DNA from: a virus
Lineage: Duplodnaviria > Heunggongvirae > Uroviricota > Caudoviricetes
DNA: 64,000 nucleotides
Strand: one strand, 5' to 3'
Virus record (IMG/VR): IMGVR_UViG_3300005329_000001
In this document: one piece after another, positions 23,857 to 57,396 of the stretch
How positions within the stretch are numbered: the stretch's first letter is position 1
How the letters are laid out: the number at the start of each line of letters is the position of its first letter
Position numbers and translations under genes: made by a program
Notes under the pieces: model-generated
The model's database searches: none
The model's input: the letters and a program-made list of their open reading frames with translations, nothing else
What the model was told of the DNA's origin: nothing

Positions 23857-24240
23857 CTACTTATCTTGGCAGATAACGGCGATCGATCCTTTGTGGATGA
23901 TGAGCTCGCTCTCTTCGGCGCCGACGAGCAAGTCACCATCCTTGTCATAGATCCGTCCTGCCACTTGCAGTGTGTATCGATCGAGGCTTCGAAGCACGCC
24001 GCGAACATTGTCGCCGGTGACGAGGTAGACCAGCACCTGCTTGCCGATCCACTCCCGCACCGTATTGTTCCACTGACTCTTGTCGTTGACCGTTGCTTCG
24101 AGTGCCTGGATGCGCTTCTCGTTGTCCAGGGACTTGCCGCGGGCCTCATGGACCATGCGGCTAAGCTCACCTGCCTGGGACGGGCTTATCGCCGGCGGGA
24201 TCGATCTGTTGCTGCCCCGGCGATCGTCGTGGTTCCCCAT
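23857..24240 (-). CDS. Hfq/Sm-like protein with N-terminal helical extension
   Basis: KQVLVYLVTGDNVRGVLRSLDRYTLQV (Sm1) and ELIIHKGSIAVI (Sm2) align by eye with Hfq [21 protein letters not shown]...MVYKHAISTV. Alternative start at 24156. Confidence 0.7.
   Translation of the reverse strand: MGNHDDRRGSNRSIPPAISPSQAGELSRMVHEARGKSLDNEKRIQALEATVNDKSQWNNTVREWIGKQVLVYLVTGDNVRGVLRSLDRYTLQVAGRIYDKDGDLLVGAEESELIIHKGSIAVICQDK
24185..24212 (-). promoter_or_regulatory. Candidate phage promoter GCAACA-N16-GATAAG
   Basis: Matches the motif found at five other sites. Upstream of the alternative Hfq-like start at 24156 and of dnaB. Confidence 0.4.
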
Positions 24241-24308
24241 AGGGTCCTCGCGAAACTGTAGTCCTACTCCCAGGCGGGAGAGGAGATCAAGTTTGAACTG
24301 CTATCACG

Positions 24309-24587
24309 CTACATCTGCTCGGGTTCTCGTGCTTGCTCCTGCGGTGGCTGCGGCTCGAACACGTGCTCGAGTGTCTCCGCTTCCATCGCATCCTGCAACT
24401 CTGCGAGCGCGGCGAGAGTGCGAGGACTCCACTCCAGCCGTCGCTGCAGCAACCCAGCCCGCTCCTCGTCATCGCGGATGAGGACGAAATCCGCCGTCAA
24501 CGGGGGCAGGGCTGGATTGACGAAGTTGAGATGCGCCTGCTGAAGCTCGATGCCCACGATCCGGCACTTCGACTTGGACACCAGCAT
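24309..24587 (-). CDS. Hypothetical protein
   Basis: TGATG coupling with the upstream gene. Confidence 0.6.
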   Translation of the reverse strand: MLVSKSKCRIVGIELQQAHLNFVNPALPPLTADFVLIRDDEERAGLLQRRLEWSPRTLAALAELQDAMEAETLEHVFEPQPPQEQAREPEQM

Positions 24588-24970
24588 CAGTACGCCGGCC
24601 TTGCTGGCGCCGCAGGCTTGAGGAGCCCCATGGCTTCGCAGCGCTGCTTCATCTGCTGGAAGTGCTGCTCGATCTGGTAGTCCGCGATCTGCGCTGCCAA
24701 CCCCACGGCGTAGTTGACGGTCTGCGCATCTTGGTTGCAGACGAGGGAGACGGACACGAACACCTTGCCGCCGGAGCCGAAGTCCATCTCGCTCATGTCG
24801 CGCCCGACGGAGACGCGAGCGAGCCCGTCCCCGATGATCGCCTTGTAGTAGTCCTGCTGTTGCTGAGACATGGGAGCCTCTCCTTCAAGAACCTCGTTGT
24901 CTACGTCACGACTGTTCTGACTGTAGACGCGTCGCACAGTGAAGCTTGTGTGAGGGAGAACCACTTCCAT
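24587..24970 (-). CDS. Hypothetical protein (start 24970 or 24871)
   Basis: SD-preceded ATGs at both positions; coding-like composition. Confidence 0.6.
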   Translation of the reverse strand: MEVVLPHTSFTVRRVYSQNSRDVDNEVLEGEAPMSQQQQDYYKAIIGDGLARVSVGRDMSEMDFGSGGKVFVSVSLVCNQDAQTVNYAVGLAAQIADYQIEQHFQQMKQRCEAMGLLKPAAPARPAY

Positions 24971-24974
24971 GGGA

Positions 24975-25274
24975 CTAGTCCTCGGCGATCGGAACTTCTC
25001 CGGGCTCGATTCCACGCGAGAGGCGCGCCTTGAGCTGGACAGTCTCGATGTAGACCGTCCGCTTCTTCGTGGCCTCGATGCGCTGGTCGATGGATGCCTT
25101 GTTGGGAATGCTGTCGCGCGGGTCGTCGTAGACTGTGACGTCCACGAACCCTTCCCGACGCAGGGCCTCTTCGATGAAGCGAGCCACCGTCGTCTTGCCT
25201 CGATTGCACTTGCCAGCGACGGTGATGATGAGGCCTTCCTCGCCTGCTTCCTGTCTCGTCACTTCACGACCCAT
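24975..25274 (-). CDS. Short P-loop-containing protein (kinase-like fragment)
   Basis: IITVAGKCNRGKTTVARFI. At 99 aa it is too short for a complete NMP kinase. Confidence 0.5.
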   Translation of the reverse strand: MGREVTRQEAGEEGLIITVAGKCNRGKTTVARFIEEALRREGFVDVTVYDDPRDSIPNKASIDQRIEATKKRTVYIETVQLKARLSRGIEPGEVPIAED

Positions 25275-25551
25275 TGCCCACCGCCTGGTTGGGATACTTC
25301 ATGTCGTAGGCCTTCTTCGCCGCGTCGAGCAGCCGGAACCCCCAGAAGGACGCCGGCTGGCCGCCCTGCTCGCAGATGTCGAGCTGCCAGATCGAGATGT
25401 ACTGCTGCTCGTCCGGCGTCCCCTTCGGCTTGCGAAGGCCGTACTTCTTCAGGTCATCGATCGGAACGGCGAACTTGAAGGCACGGGTGCCGGGCCAGGT
25501 CTGGCCCTTCTCCAGCTCGTCCAGCGTTGCTTCCAGTCCCATCTTCGGCAT
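25264..25551 (-). CDS. Hypothetical protein
   Basis: SD AGGAG; high GC3 codon usage. Confidence 0.6.
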   Translation of the reverse strand: MPKMGLEATLDELEKGQTWPGTRAFKFAVPIDDLKKYGLRKPKGTPDEQQYISIWQLDICEQGGQPASFWGFRLLDAAKKAYDMKYPNQAVGNGS

Positions 25552-25566
25552 CTATCGCTCCTAGGT

Positions 25567-25599
25567 AAGAAAAGCCCCACCTCCCGAAGGAGGTGAGGT
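25567..25599 (-). terminator. Rho-independent terminator (minus strand)
   Basis: CCTCACCTCC-TTCG-GGAGGTGGGG with a UUCG tetraloop, followed by CTTTTCTT. Confidence 0.75.
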
Positions 25600-25606
25600 T
25601 TGGTGG

Positions 25607-25849
25607 TCACTTGAGCTTGCGCCCGTGGTTCCGTTGCCGGTTCAGCTTGAACTCTTCGAACGCGGTCAGCCTGAAGTAGACTTCTCTCCAAGCCAAGTGA
25701 AAATGCGGACCGAGAAGCTTGAGGCGCCACTCCGCTTCCTTATGAAAGTCGATGGCGAGCTCGAGCTCTTCGTCGGTGAGTCCATCTCCCTTACCGATCT
25801 TCTTGAGAACAGCCTCGAGCTTCTCCTCCTGCTCCTTGTCGATGTTCAC
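25607..25849 (-). CDS. Hypothetical protein
   Basis: GTGA overlap with the upstream gene. Confidence 0.6.
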   Translation of the reverse strand: MNIDKEQEEKLEAVLKKIGKGDGLTDEELELAIDFHKEAEWRLKLLGPHFHLAWREVYFRLTAFEEFKLNRQRNHGRKLK

Positions 25850-26367
25850 TTGCCGGCCTTGAGCTCCTGACCGAATGCCGGGATCGGCTTCGGACCGGAC
25901 ACCGCCGGCGTCATGGCCAGGCCGGGCTCGATGGTGGTGGCGAACTGCTTCTCGAGCCCGTTCTTCTTGAGGAACTCGTTGGCCGCTTCCTGGTTGATCT
26001 CGATCTTCGTGGCGATCGCGCCCTCGTCTTCCATCTGCTTCTTGAAGCCGAGCGACTTGGCGAGGTTGACGAACTCGACCGCGCGGAAGCTGTCCGAGCC
26101 GAACTTCTTCGAGACCTGGAACGGCCCGAACTTGAACGTCTTGTAGCGGGTCGGGTCGAGGCGGGTGGCCTCGCTGCGGAGCATCTTGCCGGCCTCGTCC
26201 AGGTTCACGTTGCGCTCTTCACGAAGCTGGTCGAGCTGGTCGATCTCCTGCTGATGGCGGTCGTAGAACTCGGCCCACGCGGCCTGGTACTTCTGGTCGG
26301 CCGAGAGGAACTTGTTGACGACGTTCTGGGTGTCCTGCGTGGGGATGTAGTCCTTGACCGTGCTCAT
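25846..26367 (-). CDS. Hypothetical coiled-coil protein
   Basis: SD AAGGAG; very high GC3; N-terminal coiled coil. Confidence 0.7.
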   Translation of the reverse strand: MSTVKDYIPTQDTQNVVNKFLSADQKYQAAWAEFYDRHQQEIDQLDQLREERNVNLDEAGKMLRSEATRLDPTRYKTFKFGPFQVSKKFGSDSFRAVEFVNLAKSLGFKKQMEDEGAIATKIEINQEAANEFLKKNGLEKQFATTIEPGLAMTPAVSGPKPIPAFGQELKAGK

Positions 26368-26537
26368 CGCTCGTTCTCCTTGTTCGCCGTAAAGAGATCA
26401 AACTGCTCATCCCAGTCTCCAGCCGGTAATTCGGATGGATACTCTTTGGGCTGTCGCAGAGATCTTTTCTCCCAATGTTGCTCGAATTTGTTGAGCAGTC
26501 GGATCTGCTCCTTGACGTAGGCCTGAAGGGTCATCAT
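26364..26537 (-). CDS. 57-aa hypothetical protein (not in ORF track)
   Basis: MMTLQAYVKEQIRLLNKFEQHWEKRSLRQPKEYPSELPAGDWDEQFDLF...; overlap coupling at both ends. Confidence 0.6.
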   Translation of the reverse strand: MMTLQAYVKEQIRLLNKFEQHWEKRSLRQPKEYPSELPAGDWDEQFDLFTANKENER

Positions 26538-27334
26538 CACTCGTCCTCCCGGCGGTCTGGATGCGGGATGCCGAAGTTGCGGAAGTTGTAGTCGTCCACA
26601 AGCTTTACGGCCCGCAAGAAGTCATGGAACGTCTTGGCCCCCTCTCCTCCCTTTTGGTTGAAGTCGTTCTTCCTCATCAAGTAGCTGGGGTGCAGCGTCG
26701 CGATGAGCGGGTAGGTCAGGTTGCGGCCGAGCAGCCTCCCTGGAACCGGGACGTCGAAGAGCTCACCACGAACTCCAGTGATGGAGATCTTCCTGCCGAG
26801 CAAGCTCTCGACTGCGATGCGGCCTACCGCGATGATGATGACTGGGTCGACGATGTAGATCGTCTCCAGTAACCGCGGCCGGCACGCGGCGACCTCCTTG
26901 GGGGTCGGATCCCGGTTCTCTGGCGGATGGCAGGAGATGACGTTGGTGAAGAAGAACTCTTGGATGAGGAGCTGGCGGAGCTCGTAATCCAGTCGCTGCG
27001 TCCTCTCCGAGCTCGACTCCTTGTTGATCTCGGCCAGCTTCTCCCTGACCTCTGGGCGGGCGCTGACAGAGGCGAGGTACTGATTCAGCAGCATCCCCGA
27101 CTTGCCGACGAAGGGATGACCCTGCTCGTCCTCATTGGCGCCGGGCGCCTCACCAATGATGAGAACCTGACCGCCGAAGCCAATCTGGCGGTTGATGTTA
27201 TGGTCGTAGATCGGGACCTTGTCGAACTGCCCATAGCCGAAGACTACGTTCTTCCTCTCATTGCACAGCAGTGGGCACTTCTGGCAGTTAGACCACTCGT
27301 TGACGAGGGTCTGCAGCCGCTCCAGCTTCTGCAT
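26537..27334 (-). CDS. Family 4 uracil-DNA glycosylase (Fe-S type)
   Basis: CQKCPL, IIGEAPGANED..G.PFVGKSG, FTNVISCHPPENRDP...AACRPRL and LHPSY. Confidence 0.92.
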   Translation of the reverse strand: MQKLERLQTLVNEWSNCQKCPLLCNERKNVVFGYGQFDKVPIYDHNINRQIGFGGQVLIIGEAPGANEDEQGHPFVGKSGMLLNQYLASVSARPEVREKLAEINKESSSERTQRLDYELRQLLIQEFFFTNVISCHPPENRDPTPKEVAACRPRLLETIYIVDPVIIIAVGRIAVESLLGRKISITGVRGELFDVPVPGRLLGRNLTYPLIATLHPSYLMRKNDFNQKGGEGAKTFHDFLRAVKLVDDYNFRNFGIPHPDRREDE

Positions 27335-27341
27335 GACTACC

Positions 27342-28730
27342 TCACGTGAAGTTGGGTGCGTTGAGAACCTGGAACGGATAGCTCCAGCTCCTGAGCTTCG
27401 ACTTCAGCTTCTTGCACATCGCATGGAAGGGCGGGATGTGGACGTCATCGAAGACGATCATCACAGGGTGGCCCTTCTTCAGTTGTGGGTCTCTGGCGCC
27501 GATGCGCCCTTTCGCTTGCTCCAGGTCGTTCTCCGACGAGAACGGCGTGAGAAAGAAAAGCGTGTCAAGCTGCGGGTCGTCCAGACCCTCTACGCCAAGA
27601 CGAGCAATGGCGTAGGTCACCTGGCTGCGCTTCAGTAGTGCAGATCGTTCTTCTTGTGGCGTCTCCTCGATGATGATTGCAGAGCCGGGTGTCTTCTCGT
27701 GTAGTGCCTTGAGTTGCGCTTTCGAGTGAGAGACAGCCAAGATCTTCCGTCCCTCTTTCACAGCCTCCATGATGCAGCGCCAGCGGAACTCGTTGGCCAC
27801 GTCGTCTTTTCCAAGCGCGGAGCGCATCATCGAGACACTGAGCTCTCCCGTCACATCCCTCACCTCACTGTTGCCCTTGCCCAGATCCATTTGCGTTGGG
27901 GTGAGCTGGAAGTAGGTTCTGGGAATCAGGTCTTGCTCTGTGTCTGTGTAGAAGACTGGGCCCAGATGGTAGTGGTAGATGTACTCGAGCCCGTCGAGAC
28001 GCCGCGGTGTCGCGGTTAGCCCAAGACGGTATCCCATGACTGTCGCTGCGGTCTGGGAGAACAGCTTGGCTGCGAGGTGATGAACCTCGTCGTAGATGCC
28101 CACCCCGAAGTGCCGGTCGAAGCCAGGAGGGAGCTTCTTCTCCTTCGCCCGCAGCGCCAACGTATGAATCATGGCGATTACGATTGGCCTCTCCCAGTCA
28201 AGCTCCTTGCCCTGGATGACGCCGATCTTCTCCCCCTTTGGAAGAATAACGTGTTCCTCAATTCGCTCTCTCCACTGTGTAAAGAGATACGAGTTGTGAA
28301 CAACTACCAGTCCTGGACACCCAAGCTCGACTAGACGCTTGAGTGCCAGGACTGTTTTACCCTTGCCGCAGCCGAGGTTGAGGATGCCATTGGGGTTGGC
28401 CTGCATTGCTGCATAGGCCTCGGCTTGCTTCTGATTGCGCAGCTCGATCTTCGTCGACAGCCCACTCTTGGGGAACGATCGGGGCGTCAGATCAACGAAG
28501 GGAAATGGGTAGGACTGGTAGTCGGAGACTTTGAGAAACTCCCGTGGCACGCCGATGTGGTGAGGTGAGTCCTCCCACAGGCGAACGCGCACCGGATCTC
28601 GATCTTCGACATCCCAGAATTCGAGAGTGTCGGTGATCGCCTGCTGCCGGATTCCCCACTTGGGTAGCCACAGCAGGCGATCGATATACGCCTTATCCGG
28701 TGCCCGCACCGGCAGCAGAAGCTTTGACAT
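27342..28730 (-). CDS. Superfamily II DNA helicase (UvsW/XPB-like)
   Basis: LGCGKGKT, DEVHH, GLTATP.R.DG, EGLD and EQAKGRI. Confidence 0.9.
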   Translation of the reverse strand: MSKLLLPVRAPDKAYIDRLLWLPKWGIRQQAITDTLEFWDVEDRDPVRVRLWEDSPHHIGVPREFLKVSDYQSYPFPFVDLTPRSFPKSGLSTKIELRNQKQAEAYAAMQANPNGILNLGCGKGKTVLALKRLVELGCPGLVVVHNSYLFTQWRERIEEHVILPKGEKIGVIQGKELDWERPIVIAMIHTLALRAKEKKLPPGFDRHFGVGIYDEVHHLAAKLFSQTAATVMGYRLGLTATPRRLDGLEYIYHYHLGPVFYTDTEQDLIPRTYFQLTPTQMDLGKGNSEVRDVTGELSVSMMRSALGKDDVANEFRWRCIMEAVKEGRKILAVSHSKAQLKALHEKTPGSAIIIEETPQEERSALLKRSQVTYAIARLGVEGLDDPQLDTLFFLTPFSSENDLEQAKGRIGARDPQLKKGHPVMIVFDDVHIPPFHAMCKKLKSKLRSWSYPFQVLNAPNFT

Positions 28731-28756
28731 TGTCTCCTTCCAGCCCGAAGAAGATC

Positions 28757-29326
28757 CTACGTTGTACCTAAACTAACGGGCCAAGTCCAGTTCGCGAAGA
28801 ACCTCCACAGCTCCTCGAAAATGGCCTTGAGTGCAGACAGGATCACGTTCTTTGCCAGGCGAGATCTCGTTGATTCTCCAGAGTACTGCCACACCCCCGG
28901 GTTGTTGGGATTCGGCCTCTGCAGATACACGATCGGAGCATTCCAGCCGGCCGGAGCGTTCTGCTGATAGGCCAGAGGTGCGTACCCCACAGAAGGTTGC
29001 TGGGGAGCCTGCATCGGCGCTGGCATCGCGGGTCGAGGATAGTTCGTCGGTGGCGGCTGAGGCATTGCCGATCCCGAGTTGTACCCAAACCGCTGTGAGA
29101 AGGTCTGTGGCGGCTGCTGCGGTTGTTGCGGGAACATCGGTAGTGAGTAGCGAGGTTGAGGCAGCATCGACCCTCCCTGCCGCCGGTACGAGTCGAGCAT
29201 CGATCGGTGATTGATCGACTCGGTCCGGCATGTCGTCCTGTCGAACAGGCAGTTCTTGCATTCATCGTCTTCTTCGCCGAATTGCTTCCCCCAGCAATGC
29301 GGTGCTCCGGCTGGTTCGTTGCCCAC
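28757..29326 (-). CDS. Hypothetical protein with N-terminal Cys motif, P/Q-rich middle and C-terminal amphipathic helix
   Basis: SD AAGGAGG before GTG 29326. HCWG...ECKNC...TC; first gene of the minus-strand block. Confidence 0.65.
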   Translation of the reverse strand: MGNEPAGAPHCWGKQFGEEDDECKNCLFDRTTCRTESINHRSMLDSYRRQGGSMLPQPRYSLPMFPQQPQQPPQTFSQRFGYNSGSAMPQPPPTNYPRPAMPAPMQAPQQPSVGYAPLAYQQNAPAGWNAPIVYLQRPNPNNPGVWQYSGESTRSRLAKNVILSALKAIFEELWRFFANWTWPVSLGTT

Positions 29327-29369
29327 TTTGTCCTCCTTCAGTGAAAGAAAATGGCATCCTCTCCAAGCC

Positions 29370-29396
29370 CTTATCCCGGGGATTTGGAGTTTTTGC
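29370..29396 (-). promoter_or_regulatory. Candidate phage promoter GCAAAA-N15-GATAAG driving the replication block
   Basis: Intergenic, about 45 nt upstream of the first gene of the 20 kb minus-strand block. The motif recurs at 35.0, 39.0, 54.3 and 57.4 kb. Confidence 0.6.
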
Positions 29397-29412
29397 ATTC
29401 GGAGGTTTTGCT

Positions 29413-29441
29413 TTGCACCCGACAGTCAGTCCTCGTAGGAT
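29413..29441 (+). promoter_or_regulatory. Sigma70-like promoter TTGCAC-N17-TAGGAT
   Basis: Exact 17-nt spacing; upstream of the head-protein/portal operon. Confidence 0.55.
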
Positions 29442-29473
29442 GAGACCCAGGCTCTCCTCGAGAGGTGTGAAAG

Positions 29474-30892: not shown

Positions 30893-30895
30893 TCA

Positions 30896-32996: not shown

Positions 32997-35045
32997 ATGA
33001 GCGACCTCGGTCTCGCTGGCGGCATTGCCAGATTCGATTCGTTTCACGGTCGCCAAGAGGGCGGCGGAGGCGCTCTTCGTTACCCGTCTCCGTTCTTCGA
33101 CATCGGCCACACGTATCTGCCCACCAGCATCAAGCAGATGTTCCGGTGGTGCCGGTACTACTTCCTCACCAACCCGCTGATCAACGCCGTCACTTACAAG
33201 ATGGCGGAGTACCCGATCACGGACATCATCGTCGACGAGGAAGACTCTGAGCAGCGGGCGAAGTGGATCGAGATGATCGAGCACCAGTTCAAGGTGCGTA
33301 CGGTCGAGATCGAAGCCGGCCTGGACTATTACTGCTACGGCATCGCATTCATTTCGCTGCACTTCCCATTCGACAAGTACCTCGTCTGCCCGCACTGCAA
33401 GACGGAGTACAAGGCCAAGGACAAGCGGACCGAGTTCAAGTTCCGCAACCTCAACTACTTCTTGTCCTGCAAGAAGTGCGAGATGGTCGTCCAGGCCAAG
33501 ATCGTCGACAACTACACGAAGAACTATCGGGACATCAAGGTCATCCGGTGGAACCCGGAGTACGTCACCGCTGAGCACAACGACATCACCGGTGAGACGG
33601 CCTACTTCTTCGACATCCCCATGGCGACGAGGAACGACATCCTCATGGGGAAGCGTCACGTAATCGAGTCGATCCCGGACGTCTACATCGAGTCGCTTCG
33701 CTCCAACAAGAGCCTGCGCCTCACCTCGGACAACATGTTCGTGCTGAAGCGACCAACCATCGCTCAGAAGGACATGGGCTGGGGCATGCCCCTCATCCTG
33801 CCTGTCCTCAAGGACACCTTCTACCTGCAGATCTTGCGGAAGGGGCAGGAGGCGATTGCCCAGCAGCACATCGTTCCGCTCCGCATCCTCTTCCCGCAGG
33901 CTGGTGGCGCCGACGCGAGCCCTTACTCGACGACGGACCTCGGCAATTGGCGCAAGAGGATCGAGCAAGAGCTCGCCAAGCAGCGAGTCGACCCGAACTA
34001 CATCCCCATCATGCCGCTACCGGTGGGCAACGAGACGATCGGAGGCGAGGGCAAGGCACTCATGCTTCACCAGGAGATGCGCGCCTGGTCGGAGCAGATC
34101 GTCGCCGGCATGCACGTTCCCATCGAATTCGTCTTCGGCGGCCTGCAGTACTCTGGCTCCAACGTCTCGATGCGCATGCTCGAGAACCAGTTCCTCGGCT
34201 ACCGCACCAACCTCCTCATCATGGTCCGCGACTTCATTCTCGGGAAGATCGCCGACTACATGGAGTGGAACCGCCCGAAGCTGCACTTCAAGCGCTTCAA
34301 GATGGCGGACGATCTGCAGCGTCTCCAGCTCACCTTCCAGATGAACCAGGCGCAGAAGGTCTCGGACACCACGCTCCTCGACGAGGCCGATCTGGACATC
34401 GTTCAGGAAGAGAAGCACAAGAGCGCCGAGATGGCGAAGCAGATGGACAACCAGCGCAAGCAGATGATGGCCTCCGCCGAGCTCCAAGGCGAGACGCTCC
34501 TTGTCCAGACGCGCTACCAGATCCAGGCCCAGAAGCTCATGCAGGCCGCTGGAATGCCTCCGCCAGACCAAGGCGGTGGTGCCCAGAACCAACAGCTTGG
34601 CGACGCCATGAAGCAGTTCGCCGAGGGCCAGCAATTGGGAGGCCCCGGCGGGCCTGGTGGCGGTGGCGACATGCAGCCCAAGGAAGGTGACGACGCCGCC
34701 CCGGGCTTCCCAGAGGGTGTGAAGGCCTACCCGGAGAAGGGCGGGACCATGCCGAACGAGGGCATCCCGATGGAGATGCAGTCGCCGCTCACCCAGGCGG
34801 CTGGCCAAGGTGCTCTATTCAGTCCGCTCTACCTCGCTCGTCGTGCGGCTACGCACTTCGAGAAGATGGATGAGATGACGAAGAACATCGAGCTCATCAA
34901 GATGAAGGGCAAGAACCCGCAACTCTACGGGCTCACCGTTCAGCTCCTCCAAGACGCGAAGGGCTCTCAGACTGATCCGCTTGACCCCGGTCAGTCGCCC
35001 ATGCCAGACATCAAGCCGCCTCGTCGCAAGAACGCTCTCATCTGA
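32997..35045 (+). CDS. Portal protein with inserted Zn ribbon and low-complexity C-terminal extension
   Basis: WCRYYFLTNPLINAV, LDYYCYGIAF, WGMPLILPVLK and IVAGMHVPIEFVFGG match portal helix patterns. CPHC...CKKC insertion. Confidence 0.75.
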   Translation: MSDLGLAGGIARFDSFHGRQEGGGGALRYPSPFFDIGHTYLPTSIKQMFRWCRYYFLTNPLINAVTYKMAEYPITDIIVDEEDSEQRAKWIEMIEHQFKVRTVEIEAGLDYYCYGIAFISLHFPFDKYLVCPHCKTEYKAKDKRTEFKFRNLNYFLSCKKCEMVVQAKIVDNYTKNYRDIKVIRWNPEYVTAEHNDITGETAYFFDIPMATRNDILMGKRHVIESIPDVYIESLRSNKSLRLTSDNMFVLKRPTIAQKDMGWGMPLILPVLKDTFYLQILRKGQEAIAQQHIVPLRILFPQAGGADASPYSTTDLGNWRKRIEQELAKQRVDPNYIPIMPLPVGNETIGGEGKALMLHQEMRAWSEQIVAGMHVPIEFVFGGLQYSGSNVSMRMLENQFLGYRTNLLIMVRDFILGKIADYMEWNRPKLHFKRFKMADDLQRLQLTFQMNQAQKVSDTTLLDEADLDIVQEEKHKSAEMAKQMDNQRKQMMASAELQGETLLVQTRYQIQAQKLMQAAGMPPPDQGGGAQNQQLGDAMKQFAEGQQLGGPGGPGGGGDMQPKEGDDAAPGFPEGVKAYPEKGGTMPNEGIPMEMQSPLTQAAGQGALFSPLYLARRAATHFEKMDEMTKNIELIKMKGKNPQLYGLTVQLLQDAKGSQTDPLDPGQSPMPDIKPPRRKNALI

Positions 35046-35053
35046 GGCATAAG
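35026..35053 (+). promoter_or_regulatory. Candidate phage promoter GCAAGA-N16-CATAAG upstream of nrdJ
   Basis: Variant of the motif straddling the portal stop codon, 65 nt before the nrdJ start. Confidence 0.45.
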
Positions 35054-35118
35054 CGCGAGCGCTGTGCGTTAGCCAGCATAGAAGGCTTGCGCTCTTTTTT
35101 CACCTTTGGAGGTCGCAC

Positions 35119-37854
35119 ATGCAGACGGCAGCAGAGGACAAGAAGGTGGTGCGCCGAAACGCATCACCGAAGAGGATCCGATTCCAGCGGGTCTTCACCA
35201 CCGAGGGCGTTCATCCGTTCAACACCGTCGAGTGGGTCAGGAAAGATGCAGTAATCTACGGCAGCAAGGGGGACGTGAAGTTCCGTCAAGACGGTGTCGA
35301 AGTCCCCGGGTTCTGGAACGACACCACAGTCAACATCGTCGCTGAGAAGTACTTCCGCACCATCAATGGCGTGAAGGAAGTCTCCGCGAAGCAGATGTTC
35401 GATCGCGTCGCCTATTGGATGGCGCGTCAGGCGATCGACCAAGGGATCTTCGAGCCGGGGCATCTTCACACCTACGGCGCCCCTCCGTCGCCGCCCGATA
35501 CGATGATGTCCGTCGACGGCCAGGTGTTCTACGAGGAGCTTCTCTTCATGCTCCTTCATGGCATGTTCGCCTTCAACTCTCCGGTCTGGTTCAATGTCGG
35601 CGCGGTGGAAGTTCCGCAGTGCTCGGCCTGCTTCATCCAGCAGGTCACCGACGACATGGGCGACATCATGGACCTGGCCAAGAAGGAGGCCATGCTCTTC
35701 AAGGGCGGCTCGGGCACGGGCGGTAACCTCTCGCCCATCCGCGGCAGCATGGAGAAGCTGTCGAACGGTGGCACGGCATCTGGCCCGGTCTCGTTCATGA
35801 AGGGCTTCGACGCCTTCGCCGGCGCCATGAAGTCTGGTGGTGGTACTCGACGTGCCGCCAAGATGGTCGTTCTCAACGTTGACCACCCGGACATCGAGGA
35901 GTTCATCACCTGCAAGTCGAACGCGGAGCAGGTGGCTCACGATCTCTACTCGACGGGGAAGTACACCGCCGAGTTCAACGTTCCGGGCAATGTCTACGAG
36001 TACGTTGGCTTCCAGAACGCCAACAACTCGGTTCGTGTGACCGATGAGTTCATGAAGCTCGTCGAGAGCGACGGTGAGTTCTCGACGAAGTTCGTGAGCA
36101 CGGGCAAGCCGCACAAGAAGTACAAGGCCCGTCATCTTTGGAAGGAGATCGCCAAGGCCGCCTGGATGTGCGGCGATCCGGGTCTGCAGTTCGACACGAC
36201 CACGAACAACTGGCACACCAGCCCTGCTTCGGGCCGCATCAACGCCTCGAATCCGTGCTCGGAGTATCTCTACCTCGACAACACGGCCTGCAATCTCGGA
36301 TCACTGAACCTGCGCAAGTTCGTCAAGCTCGACAACACCTTCGACATCGAAGGCTTCGAGCACGCCTGCTCGATCGCCATCACCGCGATGGAGGCGGTCG
36401 TCGACGCCAGTTCCTACCCGTCGCCGGTCATCACGGAGAACAGCCACAGGTACCGTACACTGGGGCTCGGCTACACGAATCTGGGCGATCTTCTTACCGT
36501 GTGGGGTCTTCCGTACGACTCCAATGACGGTCGGAGTGTCGCCGGCGGCATCACTGCCATCATGGGTGGCGCAGCCCAGAGGCAGTCTGCTCTGCTTGCC
36601 GAAGTCCGCGGTCCGTTCGAGGCGTTCGAGGCCAACCGCGAGCCGATGCTCAACGTGGTCAAGATGCACCTCAATGCGGCCAAACGGATTCCGACGCCGA
36701 TGGCGAAGCAGTATCACGCCATCATCGATCGGGCGCCCGAAGTCTGGACGGAGGCGCTGCAGGCCGGAAAGAAGTTCGGCTACCGCAACGGCCAGGTCAC
36801 AGTGCTCGCCCCGACTGGAACCATCAGCTTCCTCATGTGCGCCGATACTACCGGCGTCGAGCCCAACACGGCTATCGTCCGGTACAAGAAGCTTGTCGGT
36901 GGTGGCATGGAGCGGCTGGCGACTCCCAGTGTCGAGCTCGCTCTCAAAAACCTCGGGTACTCGCCGGAAGTCATCGACGGGATCCTCGAGTACGTCGCTG
37001 AGAACGAGAAGCTTCAGGGCGCGCCGGAGTTCGACTACGAGAAGCACGGTGGCGTCTTCCCGGAAGCTATCGGACCGAACGCCCTGCGTCCAGAAGCTCA
37101 CATCCTCATGATGGCTGCGGTCCAGCCCTTCCTCTCGGGCGGCATCTCGAAGACCGTCAACATGCCAGAGAACTGCACGGTGGAGGACATCGAGAAGATC
37201 TACATGCTGTCCTGGAAGTCTGGTCTGAAGTGCGTGGCCATCTACCGGGACAAGTGCAAGCTCTCTCAGCCCATCTCCACCGAGAACAACACGCTCGAGG
37301 GCCGAGTCAAGTCGCTGGCGTGGGGTGAACGCCGTCGCCTACCGGACGAGCGCGACGCCAAGACGGCGAAAGTCAGCATCGGCGGCACGGAGGTGTACAT
37401 CACTCCGGGCTTCTTCGGGGATGGCTCTCTGGGCGAGATCTTCGTCCGCGTCTCGAAGCAGGGCTCCACGCTGAACGGCATCATGGATGCGTGGGCGACC
37501 GCCTTCAGCATCGGCCTCCAGCACGGCGTTCCGCTGGAGACGTTCATCGAGAAGTTCAGCGACCAGGAGTTCGAACCCAAGGGCTGGACGAGTCACCCGA
37601 TCATCCGCCGCGCTCGGTCCATCCCGGACTTCCTGGCGCAGTGGCTCGCTCTCAACTTCGCACCAAATGCGCAGCATCTTCTCCGACTGCGTGAGGCGCC
37701 GGCTGACGTCAAGCTGCTCACGCCGAAGGAAGAGGAGGCGAAGGCAGAGAAGGCGCCGTCTGGTCCTCCCTGCACTCGCTGCGGCAGTCTCACGAAGCGG
37801 GCAGGCTCGTGCCACCTCTGCCCGAACTGCGGTACCTCGACCGGCTGCGGATAG
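35119..37854 (+). CDS. nrdJ: Class II (adenosylcobalamin-dependent) ribonucleotide reductase
   Basis: FNSP, CSACF, GGSGTG, NASNPCSE, ACNLGSLNL, APTGTIS and GGISKTVN. C-terminal TSCPD-like domain and CxxC...CxxC...C tail. Confidence 0.95.
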   Translation: MQTAAEDKKVVRRNASPKRIRFQRVFTTEGVHPFNTVEWVRKDAVIYGSKGDVKFRQDGVEVPGFWNDTTVNIVAEKYFRTINGVKEVSAKQMFDRVAYWMARQAIDQGIFEPGHLHTYGAPPSPPDTMMSVDGQVFYEELLFMLLHGMFAFNSPVWFNVGAVEVPQCSACFIQQVTDDMGDIMDLAKKEAMLFKGGSGTGGNLSPIRGSMEKLSNGGTASGPVSFMKGFDAFAGAMKSGGGTRRAAKMVVLNVDHPDIEEFITCKSNAEQVAHDLYSTGKYTAEFNVPGNVYEYVGFQNANNSVRVTDEFMKLVESDGEFSTKFVSTGKPHKKYKARHLWKEIAKAAWMCGDPGLQFDTTTNNWHTSPASGRINASNPCSEYLYLDNTACNLGSLNLRKFVKLDNTFDIEGFEHACSIAITAMEAVVDASSYPSPVITENSHRYRTLGLGYTNLGDLLTVWGLPYDSNDGRSVAGGITAIMGGAAQRQSALLAEVRGPFEAFEANREPMLNVVKMHLNAAKRIPTPMAKQYHAIIDRAPEVWTEALQAGKKFGYRNGQVTVLAPTGTISFLMCADTTGVEPNTAIVRYKKLVGGGMERLATPSVELALKNLGYSPEVIDGILEYVAENEKLQGAPEFDYEKHGGVFPEAIGPNALRPEAHILMMAAVQPFLSGGISKTVNMPENCTVEDIEKIYMLSWKSGLKCVAIYRDKCKLSQPISTENNTLEGRVKSLAWGERRRLPDERDAKTAKVSIGGTEVYITPGFFGDGSLGEIFVRVSKQGSTLNGIMDAWATAFSIGLQHGVPLETFIEKFSDQEFEPKGWTSHPIIRRARSIPDFLAQWLALNFAPNAQHLLRLREAPADVKLLTPKEEEAKAEKAPSGPPCTRCGSLTKRAGSCHLCPNCGTSTGCG

Positions 37855-37856: not shown

Positions 37857-37903
37857 AAAAAACAAAGGCGGGAAGGAATGCGCAACCTTCCCGCCTTTTC
37901 TTT
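37857..37903. terminator. Bidirectional Rho-independent terminator
   Basis: AAAGGCGGGAAGG...CCTTCCCGCCTTT stem with an A-tract on the left and a T-tract on the right, between convergent genes. Confidence 0.8.
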
Positions 37904-37912
37904 AGCTTGCTC

Positions 37913-39002: not shown

Positions 39003-39030
39003 CTTATCTCCGGCAATCTCTAGGTTTTAT
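39003..39030 (-). promoter_or_regulatory. Candidate phage promoter ATAAAA-N16-GATAAG
   Basis: Intergenic, about 40 nt upstream of the acidic peptide gene. Confidence 0.55.
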
Positions 39031-39059
39031 TTGACGTCGGATCGTCTTCTGCCTACGCT
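39031..39059 (+). promoter_or_regulatory. Sigma70-like promoter TTGACG-N17-TACGCT upstream of the RNAP gene
   Basis: Near-consensus -35, exact 17-nt spacer and a TAnnnT -10. Confidence 0.6.
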
Positions 39060-46538: not shown

Positions 46539-46539
46539 C

Positions 46540-49517: not shown

Positions 49518-49980
49518 CTTCATCAAGACTAACCCACGTGCCTTCCTCACCGGCGTTGGGGCAGTTGCTGGCGGTGCTGGCGGAGCCGTCCGTGGATTGA
49601 CGATGAAGTCCTGGCATGACCAGTGGCGAGATGTAACGCACCACTATGATGCCGAGCAGAGAAAGAAAAACGCGTGGAAGATGGGGCTCGCTGGCGGAAT
49701 CGCTGGCGGTCTCGTCGGGTACACAACTCCCGTTCATACAGTGCCGGCCTCAGCACTCCCCAAAGCAGTCCCGTCGGCCTTCAAAGGCGTAAAGTCGCAG
49801 AAGGACGTGAAGAAGCTCGTCCGCGAGTTCTCGCTCAAGCACCATCCAGATCGCGGCGGTGATGCCAAGAAGTATCGAGAGTTCATCGACGCCTACAACG
49901 CGTTCAAGAAGCATCCCAAGTTCCCGAAGACGGCCATGGTGGCCTTTGTGGACGAGATGCTCCACATCCTCAATCGATGA
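49498..49980 (+). CDS. Membrane-anchored J-domain (DnaJ-type) protein
   Basis: Two Gly-zipper segments, then VKKLVREFSLKHHPDRGGD...YREFIDAYNAF (HPD). C-terminal KTA-MVAFVDEMLHIL. Start may be 49504. Confidence 0.85.
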   Translation: MAMGLGDFIKTNPRAFLTGVGAVAGGAGGAVRGLTMKSWHDQWRDVTHHYDAEQRKKNAWKMGLAGGIAGGLVGYTTPVHTVPASALPKAVPSAFKGVKSQKDVKKLVREFSLKHHPDRGGDAKKYREFIDAYNAFKKHPKFPKTAMVAFVDEMLHILNR

Positions 49981-51434: not shown

Positions 51435-51439
51435 GCTCC

Positions 51440-52881: not shown

Positions 52882-53426
52882 GCTACCTCGAGCCGCGCAT
52901 GGATGGGTTCTACGACGAGTTTGAGAAGATCTCAGCTTATTCGAATAAGCGGCTGTTTCGGGATATCGCTCCTCTTATTGGAGGGGCTGGAGCTCTTACC
53001 GGTGCCCTGAGTACTCCATTTGGAAAAAAGACCGACGAGAAGAGCTATGCACTCCGTGCGGGGAAACGAGCACTCGTCGGAGGCGCTATCGGTACTGGTC
53101 TGTCTTTGGGAGGGTCAGCACTCGCAAAGATGGCGCACGAGCTCACCCAGAGCGAGCGCACCGACTTCGCTCAGCCCAAGAAAGAAGAAGAGGGTCACAA
53201 GGGCAAGTACCCCATTCCCGACAAGAAGCACTACGGGATCGCCCTGGGCTTCGCGAAGATGCACCACGATTCTGGCGCCCTGAAGGCCATCCATGCGAAG
53301 GGCAAGGCGATGGGCTACACAAAAGAGGCCGAGGGGTTCGGCTCGCCCAACATCTCCGACGCCGATGAGATGGCGAAGATGGCAGGCCGCAGCCGGCAGA
53401 GGGTCAGCCAGCTTTTTGGGAGATGA
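52878..53426 (+). CDS. Glycine-zipper virion protein with GFYDEFEKIS leader
   Basis: N-terminal DGFYDEFEKISA, two Gly-zipper segments, then AKMAH and TKEAE. Confidence 0.6.
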   Translation: MSYLEPRMDGFYDEFEKISAYSNKRLFRDIAPLIGGAGALTGALSTPFGKKTDEKSYALRAGKRALVGGAIGTGLSLGGSALAKMAHELTQSERTDFAQPKKEEEGHKGKYPIPDKKHYGIALGFAKMHHDSGALKAIHAKGKAMGYTKEAEGFGSPNISDADEMAKMAGRSRQRVSQLFGR

Positions 53427-54009
53427 TCTTCGAGATGAACTGAGTGCGGTGGTGCGGAGTCGCCCCATTCATCTTGAGTCTGGCCTGGTGTAGCGTCGAG
53501 CCGTAGCCCTTGTTCGTCCCCCACACGTAGTTCGGGAACTCCTTGTCGAGCTCGTTCATGAGCCGATCGCGAATGACCTTGGCGAGGATGCTGGCTGCTG
53601 AGACGGGCCAGTACTTCGAATCTGCCTTGGGCTCCACTCTCTGACGGTCGATTGGCCAGCCCCTGATAGAGTACTCGCCGTCCACATAGATCAGGTCGGG
53701 AGGCTGCTTGAGGCAGGCGATGGCCCTCTGGAAGACAACGTCGTTGCACCAGTTGATGCCCTTCTCGTTGATCTCTTCCACCGAGCACTCGCCCAACCCG
53801 AAATCGAGGAGGAACGGCGACGTGAGGATGCGCTTCCACACCTCCTCTCGTTTCCTCTCGGTCGCGAATGACTTCGAGTCGGCCAGGCCCTCGATGGGAG
53901 GGTTGGACATCGTCACCTGACCGTCGAACTTGAAGAGAGCGCACGCGGCCACCAGAGGACCGGCAAGAGCACCACGACCCACTTCATCCACACCTGCGAT
54001 CAGCATCAC
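53404..54009 (-). CDS. rnhB: Ribonuclease HII
   Basis: AGVDEVGRGALAGP, LADSK, IYVDG, KAD, SAASILAKVIRD and NKGYG...H. Confidence 0.93.
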   Translation of the reverse strand: MMLIAGVDEVGRGALAGPLVAACALFKFDGQVTMSNPPIEGLADSKSFATERKREEVWKRILTSPFLLDFGLGECSVEEINEKGINWCNDVVFQRAIACLKQPPDLIYVDGEYSIRGWPIDRQRVEPKADSKYWPVSAASILAKVIRDRLMNELDKEFPNYVWGTNKGYGSTLHQARLKMNGATPHHRTQFISKIISQKAG

Positions 54010-54242
54010 TTCACCTCGGTGATCTTTCCGACGACGTGAGGAGGAATGAAGAGATCTCGGACGGCCTTCTCCGGGATGTTGATGATCAGCTCGCGATTGG
54101 CGGTGTTCGCAAGAGCCTTCTGGTAGTCTTCGGGTAGCTCGCCGCCTAGTGTGTCGACGGTGTACTCATCGACGGCAGCTTTCAACCACGGCACATCGCC
54201 ATCTTCGCAGCCCTCATTGGACCAAACTGTTCGAACTTGCAT
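54006..54242 (-). CDS. Hypothetical protein
   Basis: SD AGAGG; ATGA-type overlap with rnhB. Confidence 0.6.
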   Translation of the reverse strand: MQVRTVWSNEGCEDGDVPWLKAAVDEYTVDTLGGELPEDYQKALANTANRELIINIPEKAVRDLFIPPHVVGKITEVK

Positions 54243-54245
54243 TGG

Positions 54246-54578
54246 CTAACCTCTGTTGGTGAACGGTCCTCGCTTATCGCTCAGCAGCGGATTCTTTTGC
54301 TGAACAGGTCCGAGGCGCCGTTTCGTTCCAACGACGAGGATTAGTTTGTCTGGCTGGTTGTATATGCGCTGCAAGACGCAGTCATTCGCGTTGGCGAAGC
54401 CGTGCGCCAGATTCTGGAAGGGGCGGTAGTTCTCGCCAGTGAGTGGCTCTCTGAGATGGAAGATGACGTTCTTGATGAGTGGGTTGACAGTATCTTCGAT
54501 GGTGTACGTCGAGGAGATGTCAGCCGCTCTGTTGAACGACGCATGGAACTCTCGGACCCAGGCGAGGGAGGGTTGCAT
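54246..54578 (-). CDS. Hypothetical protein
   Basis: 110 aa ORF filling the gap; lower GC than its neighbours; no SD seen. Confidence 0.4.
   Translation of the reverse strand: MQPSLAWVREFHASFNRAADISSTYTIEDTVNPLIKNVIFHLREPLTGENYRPFQNLAHGFANANDCVLQRIYNQPDKLILVVGTKRRLGPVQQKNPLLSDKRGPFTNRG
54273..54300 (-). promoter_or_regulatory. Candidate phage promoter GCAAAA-N16-GATAAG upstream of the rnhB unit
   Basis: Exact motif, 30 nt upstream of ATG 54242. Confidence 0.6.
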
Positions 54579-54606
54579 GGCAAAATCCTAGTGACTTTGT
54601 TAGGAT
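54578..54606 (+). promoter_or_regulatory. Weak sigma70-like promoter TGGCAA-N17-TAGGAT upstream of HNH-terL
   Basis: Same -10 hexamer as the 29.4 kb promoter with 17-nt spacing; -35 matches only 3 of 6. Confidence 0.35.
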
Positions 54607-54622
54607 CCTGGTAGAGGAATCG

Positions 54623-55057: not shown

Positions 55058-56898
55058 TGGCTTACGAGATCGTGGAGGATCTCCACTCCTACCAACGCGA
55101 CCGAGAGCGTCGCGTAATGCTGCTGGATCATGAGGGTCTCTACTCTGGTCCCGAGTTCCCGGAAGAGTGGGATTACGAGCCGGATCCTGGCAACGAGTAC
55201 GGAGCACAGGACTTCAAGGACCTCCAGGATCTCGTCTCGGTGCTCCCTTCGGAGTTCACCGAATTCGCGATCATGATGCCGGACAAAGAGCATCAGACCT
55301 ACAAGAACTACTCCTTTGCCGAGCGCGAGTACCTCCGCCAGATCTACGACACCTCATCGAAGCGGACCCTGCTGAAGTGCGGTCGACAGGTCGAGAAGTC
55401 GACCATGCTCGGCAACAAGCTCCTTTCCTACTCCTGCATCGTCACTGCCCTCAACAGCCTCTACGTCTCGCCGACCAACCAACAATCGAAGGTTTTCTCG
55501 CAGGACCGTCTGAAGGAGCCGATCGAGACCAGTCCATTCTTGAAGAGCTGGACGACCACCAAGCTCTCGGACAACGTCTTCCTCAAGAAGTTCATCAACC
55601 GCTCCCAGATCACTCTCCGCTACGCCTTCATGAACGCCGACCGCTGCCGCGGCATCCCGGCGGACATCATCTGCATCGACGAGCTCCAGGACATCCTCAC
55701 CGACAACATCCCCGTTATCGAGCAGTGTGCTTCGCACTCCGTCATCAATATCGGCGGTGAGTCGCACAAGGGCGGTGTCTTCATCTTCTCTGGCACCCCC
55801 AAGAGCCTCGACAACACAATCGAGGCCTATTGGCAGCAGTACTCCACCCAGAACGAATGGGTGGTCCCCTGCCACGCCCACTCTATGTTTACGGGCGACG
55901 GCAAGATCACCAAGGTCCACTGGAACATCCTCACCGAGGACCACATCGGGGCAAAGAGCCTCATCTGCGACAAGTGCGGCGGCCCCATCGACGCCAAGGA
56001 TCCGATGGCGCAGTGGGCGTCTCTGAACCCAGACATCATCAATCAGATCCCCAAGCCCTATGAGGGCTTCCGCATCCCGCAGCTCATGGTGCCGTGGATT
56101 TCGCACGACGACATCATCCAGAACCTCAAGACCTACCCGCGCGATCGTTTCTACAATGAGGTGCTCGGCCTCTCGTACGATTCGGGCACTCGACCCCTCA
56201 CTCAGCAGGACTTGATCGACAACTGCTCGCAGTACCTCTCACTTGATCCAGCCTCTCTCGAGAAGTACAGGAACCACTTTGGCGGTTCGACACCCATCTA
56301 CGGCGGCATCGACTGGATGGGTGGCGGTGAGCACTCCTTCACCGTCTTCACGATGGGCGCCTATCTGGACGGCAAGTTCCAGGTCTTCTACTACCGTCGA
56401 TTTGAGGGGCGCGAGGCTGAGCCTCAGACGCAGATGGATGAGATCATCGAGACCATCCTCAAGTGGAACGTGCGTAGGATCGGGGTCGACTACGGCGGCG
56501 GCTTCTGGCCGAACGACAAGCTCACCAACCGCTTCGGCCTCAACCGCATCGTTAAGTACCAGTACTCGAATCCGGGCGAGAAGATTCGCTGGGAGGACGG
56601 ACTCAAGCGATTCCTCGTCAACCGTAGCGAAGTGATGAGCGACATCTTCAACGCCATCAAGCGGCGCAACGTCTTCCGCTTCCCGCAGTGGGACCAGTTC
56701 AAAGCGCCATTCGGCGGCGACTTCCTGAACATCTTCGCTGAGTACAACGAGCAGCGGCGCATGATCGAGTACAAGAAGTCGCCCAACGCCAGCGACGACT
56801 CGTTCCACTCCACCCTCTTGTGCTTCATCGTCTCGATGCTGGACTTCCCTCGTCCAGATATCGTGGCGCCGGCTATCACTCCCAGGGCGAATAGCTAA
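55057..56898 (+). CDS. terL: Terminase large subunit
   Basis: LLKCGRQVEKST (Walker A), ICIDELQD (Walker B), SGTPK (motif III), Zn-type insertion PCHAH...CDKC, nuclease GGIDW and DDSFHS. Confidence 0.85.
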   Translation: MAYEIVEDLHSYQRDRERRVMLLDHEGLYSGPEFPEEWDYEPDPGNEYGAQDFKDLQDLVSVLPSEFTEFAIMMPDKEHQTYKNYSFAEREYLRQIYDTSSKRTLLKCGRQVEKSTMLGNKLLSYSCIVTALNSLYVSPTNQQSKVFSQDRLKEPIETSPFLKSWTTTKLSDNVFLKKFINRSQITLRYAFMNADRCRGIPADIICIDELQDILTDNIPVIEQCASHSVINIGGESHKGGVFIFSGTPKSLDNTIEAYWQQYSTQNEWVVPCHAHSMFTGDGKITKVHWNILTEDHIGAKSLICDKCGGPIDAKDPMAQWASLNPDIINQIPKPYEGFRIPQLMVPWISHDDIIQNLKTYPRDRFYNEVLGLSYDSGTRPLTQQDLIDNCSQYLSLDPASLEKYRNHFGGSTPIYGGIDWMGGGEHSFTVFTMGAYLDGKFQVFYYRRFEGREAEPQTQMDEIIETILKWNVRRIGVDYGGGFWPNDKLTNRFGLNRIVKYQYSNPGEKIRWEDGLKRFLVNRSEVMSDIFNAIKRRNVFRFPQWDQFKAPFGGDFLNIFAEYNEQRRMIEYKKSPNASDDSFHSTLLCFIVSMLDFPRPDIVAPAITPRANS

Positions 56899-56925
56899 AA
56901 GAACCAGGCGCAATTGCCTGGTTCT
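56897..56925. terminator. Rho-independent terminator between convergent genes
   Basis: AGAACCAGGC-GCAATT-GCCTGGTTCT stem; T-tract on the minus strand. Confidence 0.7.
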
Positions 56926-56941
56926 GTGCTGCCCCTTGAAA

Positions 56942-57313
56942 CTACGAAACGCGTGCCCCCACAGCCCGCAGCTTCGTCGAACCCGAGAACTCCTTCTCCA
57001 TCTCCTCGTTGACCTTCGCGGTGTCCTTGCGCTGCTTGCGGTCCGTCAGCCGCTTGTAGGCCAGGCCACCCACGATGCCTCCCACGACGGCCACCGCAGC
57101 ATAGCTGCCGATGACTGCCACCCGCTGCCGAGTCGTGAGTACCGGCTTGATGGAGAACTGTCGGATGGCCTCCGGGATGGTGTCCAGAGCGCCTTCCACC
57201 ATCTCGTCGATGTGCTCCTTGCAGAAGTTCTGGAGAGTCTCCATGTCCTGCTTGTTGAGGCCGTGGCGGGGTGGCTGCGGAAGCGAGGACATCTCTTGCT
57301 GCTGGTTTCCCAT
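56942..57313 (-). CDS. Single-pass membrane protein
   Basis: Transmembrane segment VAVIGSYAAVAVVGGIVGGLAY followed by a basic tail. SD GGAGA. Confidence 0.65.
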   Translation of the reverse strand: MGNQQQEMSSLPQPPRHGLNKQDMETLQNFCKEHIDEMVEGALDTIPEAIRQFSIKPVLTTRQRVAVIGSYAAVAVVGGIVGGLAYKRLTDRKQRKDTAKVNEEMEKEFSGSTKLRAVGARVS

Positions 57314-57368
57314 CTGTCGTCTCCATGTGAGGGGTACGAACGAAAAAACGTTCGTTCACGTCACACCT

Positions 57369-57396
57369 CTTATCCCGAGACGTTTCAGTTTTTTGC
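57369..57396 (-). promoter_or_regulatory. Candidate phage promoter GCAAAA-N16-GATAAG
   Basis: Exact motif, about 55 nt upstream of ATG 57313. Confidence 0.6.

Follow-up and report, generated by a model that had tools for sequence, protein, structure and literature searches.

The genome of an uncultured tailed phage (Caudoviricetes; IMG/VR record IMGVR_UViG_3300005329_000001) carries a family of ∼40 predicted promoters, GCAAAA-N16-G-n-GATAAG, that are probably read by a holoenzyme made of the phage's own sigma factor and its own fused RNA polymerase (RNAP). The record is a single contig of 210,330 bp with direct terminal repeats and a GC content of ∼60%, and the window analyzed here is the 64,000-nucleotide (nt) stretch from base 53814 to base 117813; positions below are those of the window unless marked otherwise. 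A preliminary description of the window had pointed to six copies of a bipartite motif, GCAAAA-N15/16-GATAAG, ahead of nonstructural genes and had taken them for early promoters. All six were found where it placed them, three as exact copies and the others with the ATAAAA, GCAAGA/CATAAG, and GCAACA variants that it described. They form the -35-reliant end of the larger family, so that the motif as a unit of six sites is real but is a subset, in which the GCAAAA half is optional and which is not specific to the window. We found no paper that states the consensus GCAAAA-N16-G-n-GATAAG.

Enrichment and consensus

The exact motif occurs three times in the window, always on the minus strand, and was not seen in any of 100 dinucleotide-preserving shuffles of the window. 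Genome-wide there are five exact copies versus ∼0.01 expected, an estimate based on the frequencies of the two hexamers. We also compared intergenic and coding k-mers over the whole genome without bias toward any word, using a set of ∼280 genes called with our own codon-usage model and covering ∼90% of the genome. GATAAG was the top intergenic-enriched hexamer, with 41 intergenic copies versus 2.2 expected, and GAGATAAGA and GGGATAAG emerged as the extended enriched words. Most promoters of the family lie outside the window, in a block of small genes at 137 to 178 kb of the genome.

Alignment of the 35 intergenic, gene-directed copies of GATAAG gave the consensus c-k-G-R-GATAAG-A-r, with the G two bases upstream of the hexamer present in 34 of them and a weaker g-c-A-A-a patch at exactly the position that the preliminary description had assigned to GCAAAA. 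This upstream G is the best discriminator between functional and chance copies. G-n-GATAAG is found 34 times between genes and 8 times in coding DNA, and 31 of the 34 are in the sense orientation with a start codon within 120 nt, whereas GATAAG without the G has 7 intergenic and 14 coding copies, only one of which is oriented toward a start. When the hexamer is widened to G-n-[GT]ATAAG, there are 40 intergenic and 8 coding copies, 36 of the 40 being sense and at most 120 nt from a start (p ∼3e-32). The minor variants TATAAG (6 intergenic copies) and CATAAG (3 intergenic copies) do not occur in coding DNA. The motif is enriched both over a shuffled background and upstream of genes, with a sense bias.

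The GCAAAA box is real, graded, and optional. At least four of its six bases are matched at 18 of the 35 sites compared to 10% of random positions, and at least five at 8 of the 35 compared to a background of 0.9%. Its strength drops as the flank of the -10 element approaches TCGGAGATAAGA (Spearman -0.43, p = 0.009), and a simpler match count gives the same trade-off at -0.31 (p = 0.07). Compensation of this kind between the -35 and the extended -10 elements is typical of sigma-70-family promoters.

Geometry and promoter class

Relative to the last G of GATAAG, the GCAAAA box occupies positions -27 to -22 with a spacer of 15 to 16 bp, and the register is the same in three related genomes (G001, G002, and G004). 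Ribosome-binding sites start 6 to 14 nt after GATAAG, a distance compatible with transcription starting 6 to 8 nt past the -10 element, and many start codons are found only 16 to 22 nt past it with a GGAG in between; because a start codon and its Shine-Dalgarno sequence so often follow at this distance, GATAAG must be the start-proximal element. With its last G set to -7, the hexamer spans -12 to -7, the upstream G falls at -14, and a spacer of 16 bp places GCAAAA at -34 to -29; this predicted layout is the geometry expected of a sigma-70-family promoter with an extended -10 contact. Family sites take part in divergent pairs at 29370/29441 and at genome positions 163325/163366 and 177060/177100, and in the small-gene block GATAAG sites directly follow terminators. 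New initiation is favored both by the back-to-back pairs and by this placement of promoters behind terminators.

The family differs from each of the promoter classes to which we compared it. Host primary sigma factors read TTGACA-N17-TATAAT, in which T at -7 is near-invariant, whereas every family member has G at -7 and the -35 box is GCAAAA. With extended -10 promoters (TGnTATAAT) the phage sites have in common the G at -14, A-T-A-A at -11 to -8, a spacer of ∼16 to 17 bp, and the trade-off of the -35 against the extended -10 element, but they carry G instead of T at -7, G, T, or C at -12, and GCAAAA in place of TTGACA. The sigma-28/FliA consensus, TAAA-N15-GCCGATAA with a CGA core in the -10 box, also contains GATAA; the phage has GCAAAA rather than TAAA, GATAA is preceded by G-R where sigma-28 promoters have C-C, and relatives use TATAAG. 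The promoters of phiKZ and AR9 form yet another class, from which this phage is set apart by its single RNAP chain, its sigma-70 gene, and a bipartite promoter that is not AT rich.

Conservation in related phages

We compared four whole genomes from IMG/VR (G001 to G004, of which G003 is only 65% complete; G000 to G003 make up the close clade) and, separately, the cultured Salmonella phage Arash (OQ632216.1). A megablast search with 8 kb of the window gave no match among GenBank phages. Across the relatives, whose GC contents range from 41 to 60%, words of the GATAAG type rank among the hexamers most enriched between genes, and an A-rich box stands at the same register ahead of G-n-[G/T]ATAAG. 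The strand bias of G-n-GATAAG in the three closer relatives is 23:0, 20:1, and 1:28. Footprints are also kept at orthologous places: GGGATAAG before the replication module in G001 and G002, G001 having GCAATT at the -35 register; GAGATAAG upstream of the RNase HII orthologue in both; a CATAAG variant at the divergent position matching the 39003 site, again in both; and ggCATAAG directly 3' of the upstream stop codon before nrdJ in G000, G001, and G002.

Arash has 18 proteins in common with this phage in conserved order, and the two are alike in having the sigma gene in the structural module, an RNAP with a neighboring helicase, the terminase, and the head genes; the sigma factors are 29% identical. 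A de novo search of Arash returned GGTATAAG with 24 intergenic copies and 1 coding copy, and the extended consensus, ctGGTATAAG-tAAagTGTAAa, lies upstream of small minus-strand genes. The motif differs from an ideal Salmonella TGnTATAAT promoter essentially only at -7, which argues for a dedicated sigma factor and not that of the host. Unlike our phage, Arash and YerA41 encode beta and beta' in two genes, and they have T rather than G at -12. A T-G pair 6 to 7 nt downstream of the motif is conserved in Arash and G002. We discarded GGTTACAA as an Arash -35 box, as it is the reverse complement of the conserved TGTAA element 6 to 10 nt downstream of TATAAG. The word "promoter" is absent from the main text of both the Arash (PMC10585845) and the YerA41 (PMC7354516) papers, and the GenBank record of YerA41 lists no more than predicted sigma-70 boxes. 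Taken over these genomes, the promoter family is real and clade-wide, with a sigma-70-type geometry.

The sigma factor and the RNA polymerase

The fused beta-beta' chain (Table 1) has an intact NADFDGD motif at residue 1415 and is ∼30% identical to bacterial RpoB/RpoC, with the Pfam domains that contain the flap and clamp regions retained. Its orthologues in G001 and G002 are 60 to 61% identical, and Arash and G004 match as well. The sigma factor matches Pfam Sigma70_r3 with 29.2 bits (cutoff, 25.3), and the profile of its family aligns full-length (positions 57 to 265) with solved RpoS/RpoD chains; against the FliA_WhiG model it scores 25.9 bits, with a cutoff of 189.6. More than 160 metagenomic homologues were found, many of them on contigs of 180 to 211 kb, and the recognition helix of region 4 and a segment of region 2 are invariant across 22 aligned members. 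Relatives among viral contigs were detected with an alignment of homologues, as the single sigma sequence gave no confirmed relatives there. An attempt to derive specificity from individual region-2 residues was abandoned because the alignment with RpoS is too uncertain there. G001, G002, and G004 each encode both a sigma factor and the fused RNAP, and a sigma factor accompanies the RNAP in Arash as well. Searches of the genome returned no alpha subunit, no omega subunit, and no second sigma factor. A search for a T7-like RNAP (PF00940) gave no match, a result without weight, as its control was likewise empty in all 14 control genomes.

The sequence shows the motif with its enrichment, orientation, geometry, and conservation, and the presence of both proteins; which enzyme reads the motif, where transcription begins, and when it takes place are inferred. 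Solved holoenzymes suggest by analogy that the 272-amino-acid (aa) sigma factor would contact GCAAAA through region 4, the G at -14 through region 3, and GATAAG through region 2, the -10 element being G/T/C-A-T-A-A-G at -12 to -7 and transcription starting ∼7 nt after the last G. Together with the single-chain RNAP it would form a minimal holoenzyme without alpha and omega, whose orthogonality to host promoters would stem from G, not T, at -7. The genes that it would drive are the replication module, nucleotide-metabolism genes, and ∼30 small accessory genes, and not those of the virion.

Mass spectrometry of Arash virions found the RNAP beta subunit as the most abundant protein, beta' present, and the sigma factor at 100% coverage (PMC10585845), and YerA41 particles contain RNAP subunits and a sigma factor whose gene is late and belongs to the structural cluster (PMC7354516). 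By analogy with these relatives, the holoenzyme would probably be delivered with the DNA and so transcribe early genes. The proposal that the promoter belongs to the phage machinery is partly supported. It gains from the sigma-70 geometry, from a phage sigma factor with regions 2, 3, and 4, from an intact RNAP, from the conservation of the motif in relatives of very different GC content, also at orthologous positions, and from its departure from host-type promoters at -7; its "early" part draws only on the virion proteomics of Arash and YerA41.

A helicase encoded at 49977-51434 (+), in the plus-strand block of the RNAP, matches Arash 141276-142640 over 468 residues at 38% identity, in the vicinity of the RNAP genes of that phage. 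The Arash DNA helicase Gp217 accounted for 1148 spectra in virions (PMC10585845), and by analogy the helicase of our phage may be part of a packaged transcription module.

Weighing the explanations

We consider it likely that a holoenzyme of the phage sigma factor and the fused RNAP reads the GCAAAA-N16-G-n-GATAAG promoters. We hold more tentatively, as possible rather than probable, the fuller picture of a two-protein holoenzyme (beta-beta' and sigma, no alpha or omega) that is delivered by the virion, recognizes G at -7, and carries out early transcription orthogonal to the host. Several points weigh against these readings. Regions 2 and 4 of the sigma factor match only below their Pfam cutoffs. 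Packaging is suggested only by relatives as distant as 29% identity in the sigma factor, and a putative capsid-cargo tag, F-x-D/E-E-L-x-K-I-A, is absent from RNAP and sigma factor and present only on three small proteins. The sigma factor might pair with the host core instead of the phage RNAP, and a host alternative sigma factor may still be conceivable. Among the six sites, the one at 24185 sits within a coding region, and at nrdJ a terminator-like hairpin with T6 (-21 kcal/mol; 35054-35118, plus strand) stands between CATAAG and the ribosome-binding site.

In the first alternative, which we regard as unlikely, the sigma factor redirects the host core to the GATAAG promoters in the style of SPO1 gp28 or phiEco32 gp36, and the fused RNAP uses other signals, e.g., TTGnCn-N17/18-TAnnnT, or another factor. 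To our knowledge, the phage sigma-70-family factors that have been well studied all act on the host core. Reviews also point in this direction (PMC7824862; PMC13282480). A second conserved promoter class is indeed present, and the failure to find alpha and omega suggests that the phage core differs from the standard type that binds sigma. Nevertheless, sigma factor and fused RNAP occur together in every sufficiently complete relative examined, both proteins are in the virions of Arash and YerA41, and the flap- and clamp-containing domains of the RNAP are kept.

The motif might instead be no promoter at all but an operator for a phage DNA-binding regulator or a leader RNA signal, such as a processing site or a translation enhancer. 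Its constant place shortly upstream of ribosome-binding sites in the sense orientation and the hairpins in several leaders would fit such a role, but we find it very improbable, given that the motif is asymmetric and nonpalindromic, heads the divergent units listed above where no sense transcript arrives from upstream, and lies directly 3' of terminators, and that an RNA signal needs no box at -35 distance trading off with the extended -10 flank. That the phage merely exploits the promoter of a host alternative sigma factor of the sigma-28/FliA type, whose promoters likewise pair a GATAA core with an A-rich box about as far upstream, has very little in its favor in view of the G-R in place of the C-C of GCCGATAA, the use of GGTATAAG without the FliA CGA core by Arash, the conservation of the motif in phages of 41 to 60% GC that are unlikely to have common hosts, and its tracking of a phage-borne sigma family with invariant reading helices.

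Sites in the window and their target genes

The features discussed are collected in Table 1. For the first five sites, the preliminary description had given a distance of 30 to 65 nt to the gene; we measured 44, 41, 31, 56, and 66 nt from the last G to the start codon for the sites at 29370, 39003, 54273, 57369, and 35026, respectively.

Table 1. Predicted promoters, terminator, transcription proteins, and target genes (window positions unless marked)
Feature	Position	Strand	Basis or remark
GCAAAA-N15-GATAAG promoter heading the replication module	29370..29396	-	Exact match; 44 nt to start of 189-aa open reading frame (ORF)
ATAAAA weak -35 box with strong extended -10 CCGGAGATAAGA	39003..39030	-	Position weight matrix block B, 19.0
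GCAAAA-N16-GATAAG before 78-aa ORF and RNase HII	54273..54300	-	Exact match; 31 nt to start
GCAAAA-N16-GATAAG before 123-aa ORF	57369..57396	-	Exact match; 56 nt to start
GCAAGA-N16-CATAAG variant before nrdJ	35026..35053	+	66 nt to start; conserved but ambiguous
GCAACA-N16-GATAAG	24185..24212	-	Inside 127-aa ORF, coding DNA; 377 nt to dnaB start
Fused beta-beta' bacterial-type RNAP, 2089 aa	39118..45387	+	Pfam Rpb2_3, Rpb2_6, Rpb2_7, then Rpb1_1 to Rpb1_5
Sigma-70-family factor, 272 aa	Genome 32560-33378 (outside window)		Inside tail-gene block
Replication and repair transcription unit behind the 29370 promoter	9493..29326	-	PHROGs, Pfam
78-aa ORF and RNase HII	53404..54242	-	Pfam RNase_HII, E = 7e-32
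911-aa gene, putative nrdJ	35119..37854	+	Gene call; name from the preliminary description
Second-class TTGACG-N17-TACGCT	39031..39059	+	Ends 59 nt before RNAP start codon
Second-class TTGCAC-N17-TAGGAT before 472-aa gene block	29413..29441	+	Back to back with the 29370 promoter
Second-class site before tail block holding the sigma gene	L004:827-855 (genome 20827-20855)	+	
Family-type terminator after nrdJ	37864..37906	+	GC-rich hairpin, T-rich tract, TTAGC tail; -24 kcal/mol

The unit behind the 29370 promoter encodes a DnaB helicase, a primase, a DNA polymerase, a UvsX-like recombinase, a Cas4-type exonuclease, a deoxynucleoside monophosphate kinase, a UDG-family protein, and a helicase. The site at 39003 is divergent from the RNAP gene and is followed by a 41-aa and then a 148-aa ORF. 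Box-bearing promoters outside the window lie ahead of genes for an AAA ATPase and its VWA partner, for a DnaJ-kinase-like protein, and for a DNA ligase. In a genome scan, no GATAAG-family promoter was found at the plus-strand blocks for baseplate and fibers, terminase, a head protease/minor head protein, or the major head protein, in agreement with the earlier claim that the motif points at DNA-metabolism or small genes and never at structural operons.

Two of the six sites are less clear. The orthologues of the putative nrdJ in G001 and G002 are 53 to 54% identical, and in both a hairpin with a T-rich tract occupies the same place in the leader as the hairpin described above. The leader may thus be an attenuator, as its predicted structure suggests, and the CATAAG variant, if it is a promoter at all, is an attenuated one. 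The site at 24185 reads as the preliminary description had it; the -14 position is G, and just 0.3% of random positions attain its -35 score, a combination of features unlikely by chance; lying inside a coding frame, it is a possible internal promoter.

The 123-aa gene has a leader (57311-57368, minus strand) with a strong hairpin, ACGAACG-T6-CGTTCGT, set within a longer stem (predicted -16.2 kcal/mol) that no T-tract follows. The 232-aa protein encoded at 57385-58083 (-), which has an HTH_17 domain at its N terminus, ends inside the -35 box of the 57369 promoter and is a possible transcription regulator.

Three further sites were noted outside the window. A perfect GCAAAA-N16-GATAAG lies antisense in a plus-strand block at L003:16663-16690 (-), in a 158-nt gap (genome 16533-16690), and may drive a small RNA. 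At L009:950-1124 (-), genome 177950-178124, GCAAGA-N16-GGGATAAG is followed ∼140 nt downstream by a family terminator with no called ORF between, making this stretch a candidate for a small RNA or a very small gene. At L010:10620-10631 (-), genome 207620-207631, a 145-aa gene was called from an ATG that starts 6 nt after GATAAG, and its mRNA would be leaderless if the start follows the predicted geometry.

A second promoter class and the terminators

A pattern scan for TTGnCn-N17/18-TAnnnT gave 9 intergenic sites versus 1.1 expected, an ∼8-fold enrichment. This second class looks host-like in its predicted elements and is kept in G001 to G003 before the tail block, the block of the 472-aa gene, and the RNAP gene. 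The G001 equivalent before the RNAP gene is TTGACT-N18-TACTCT, and at the positions orthologous to the 29413 site G001 has TTGCCA-N18-TAGACT and G002 has TTGGCA-N18-TAGGAT. In Arash, no host-type promoters were found at structural genes, and the sigma-70-like sites there precede small minus-strand genes. The link between this class and virion genes is limited to the close clade.

Terminators throughout the genome have in common a hairpin rich in GC, a short tract of T/C, and a fixed TTAGC(T) tail 31 to 47 nt past stop codons, e.g., at L007:10740-10776 (-). TTAGC(T), the second enriched word, is by this placement apparently a terminator tail and not part of the promoter; TTAGCT was rejected as a -35 box, since it lies behind hairpins at a distance from GATAAG that varies from 8 to ∼30 nt. 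TTAGC was also seen within leaders, at 54245-54249 (-), 35069-35073 (+), and 58110-58114 (-), and may be more than a terminator tail.

Comparison with known systems and implications

Promoters specific to a phage sigma factor are already known in kind, and the family described here is a prediction from sequence. In Bacillus phage SPO1 (gp28, gp33/34), phiEco32 (gp36), and phage 7-11 (PMC8948821), the phage sigma factor likewise specifies a two-block promoter unlike that of the host and splits the genome into transcription classes. Those phages have no RNAP, and their sigma factors act on the host core, whereas the present phage has a sigma factor together with a fused beta-beta' chain and another consensus; furthermore, in relatives of this phage sigma is a virion protein.

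The virion and nonvirion RNAPs of phiKZ and AR9 (PMC7598289, PMC9209446) are, as here, phage relatives of the cellular enzyme that read phage-specific promoters, and they include an enzyme packaged for the early genes, as the RNAP here would probably be. They differ in being split into four to five polypeptides, in having gp68 or gp226 instead of a sigma-70 subunit, and in using promoters that are AT rich or depend on template-strand uracil, without -35 and -10 elements, whereas this phage has a single-chain RNAP, ∼30% identical to RpoB/RpoC, and a true sigma factor. The scheme may be like that of coliphage N4, in which the early genes are served by an injected phage polymerase and later ones by promoters of the host type, although the virion RNAP of N4 is a single-subunit T7-like enzyme that works on hairpin promoters, unlike the bacterial-type chain here. 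In such a scheme, the second promoter class may be read by the host enzyme.

Reviews divide the jumbo phages into two groups, those that encode an RNAP and lack a sigma factor and those that encode a sigma factor and lack an RNAP (PMC7824862; PMC13282480). Both are present in the lineage described here, and the promoter would be the DNA signal connecting them. If our reading is true, a two-protein holoenzyme would contradict that statement and would give structural and synthetic biology a minimal RNAP that depends on sigma, with a sigma factor whose reading of the -10 element is altered at -7, a position thought to be fixed in the family. The consensus allows transcription units to be annotated in widespread uncultured phages of soil and sea, and the prediction is testable in the cultured phage Arash.

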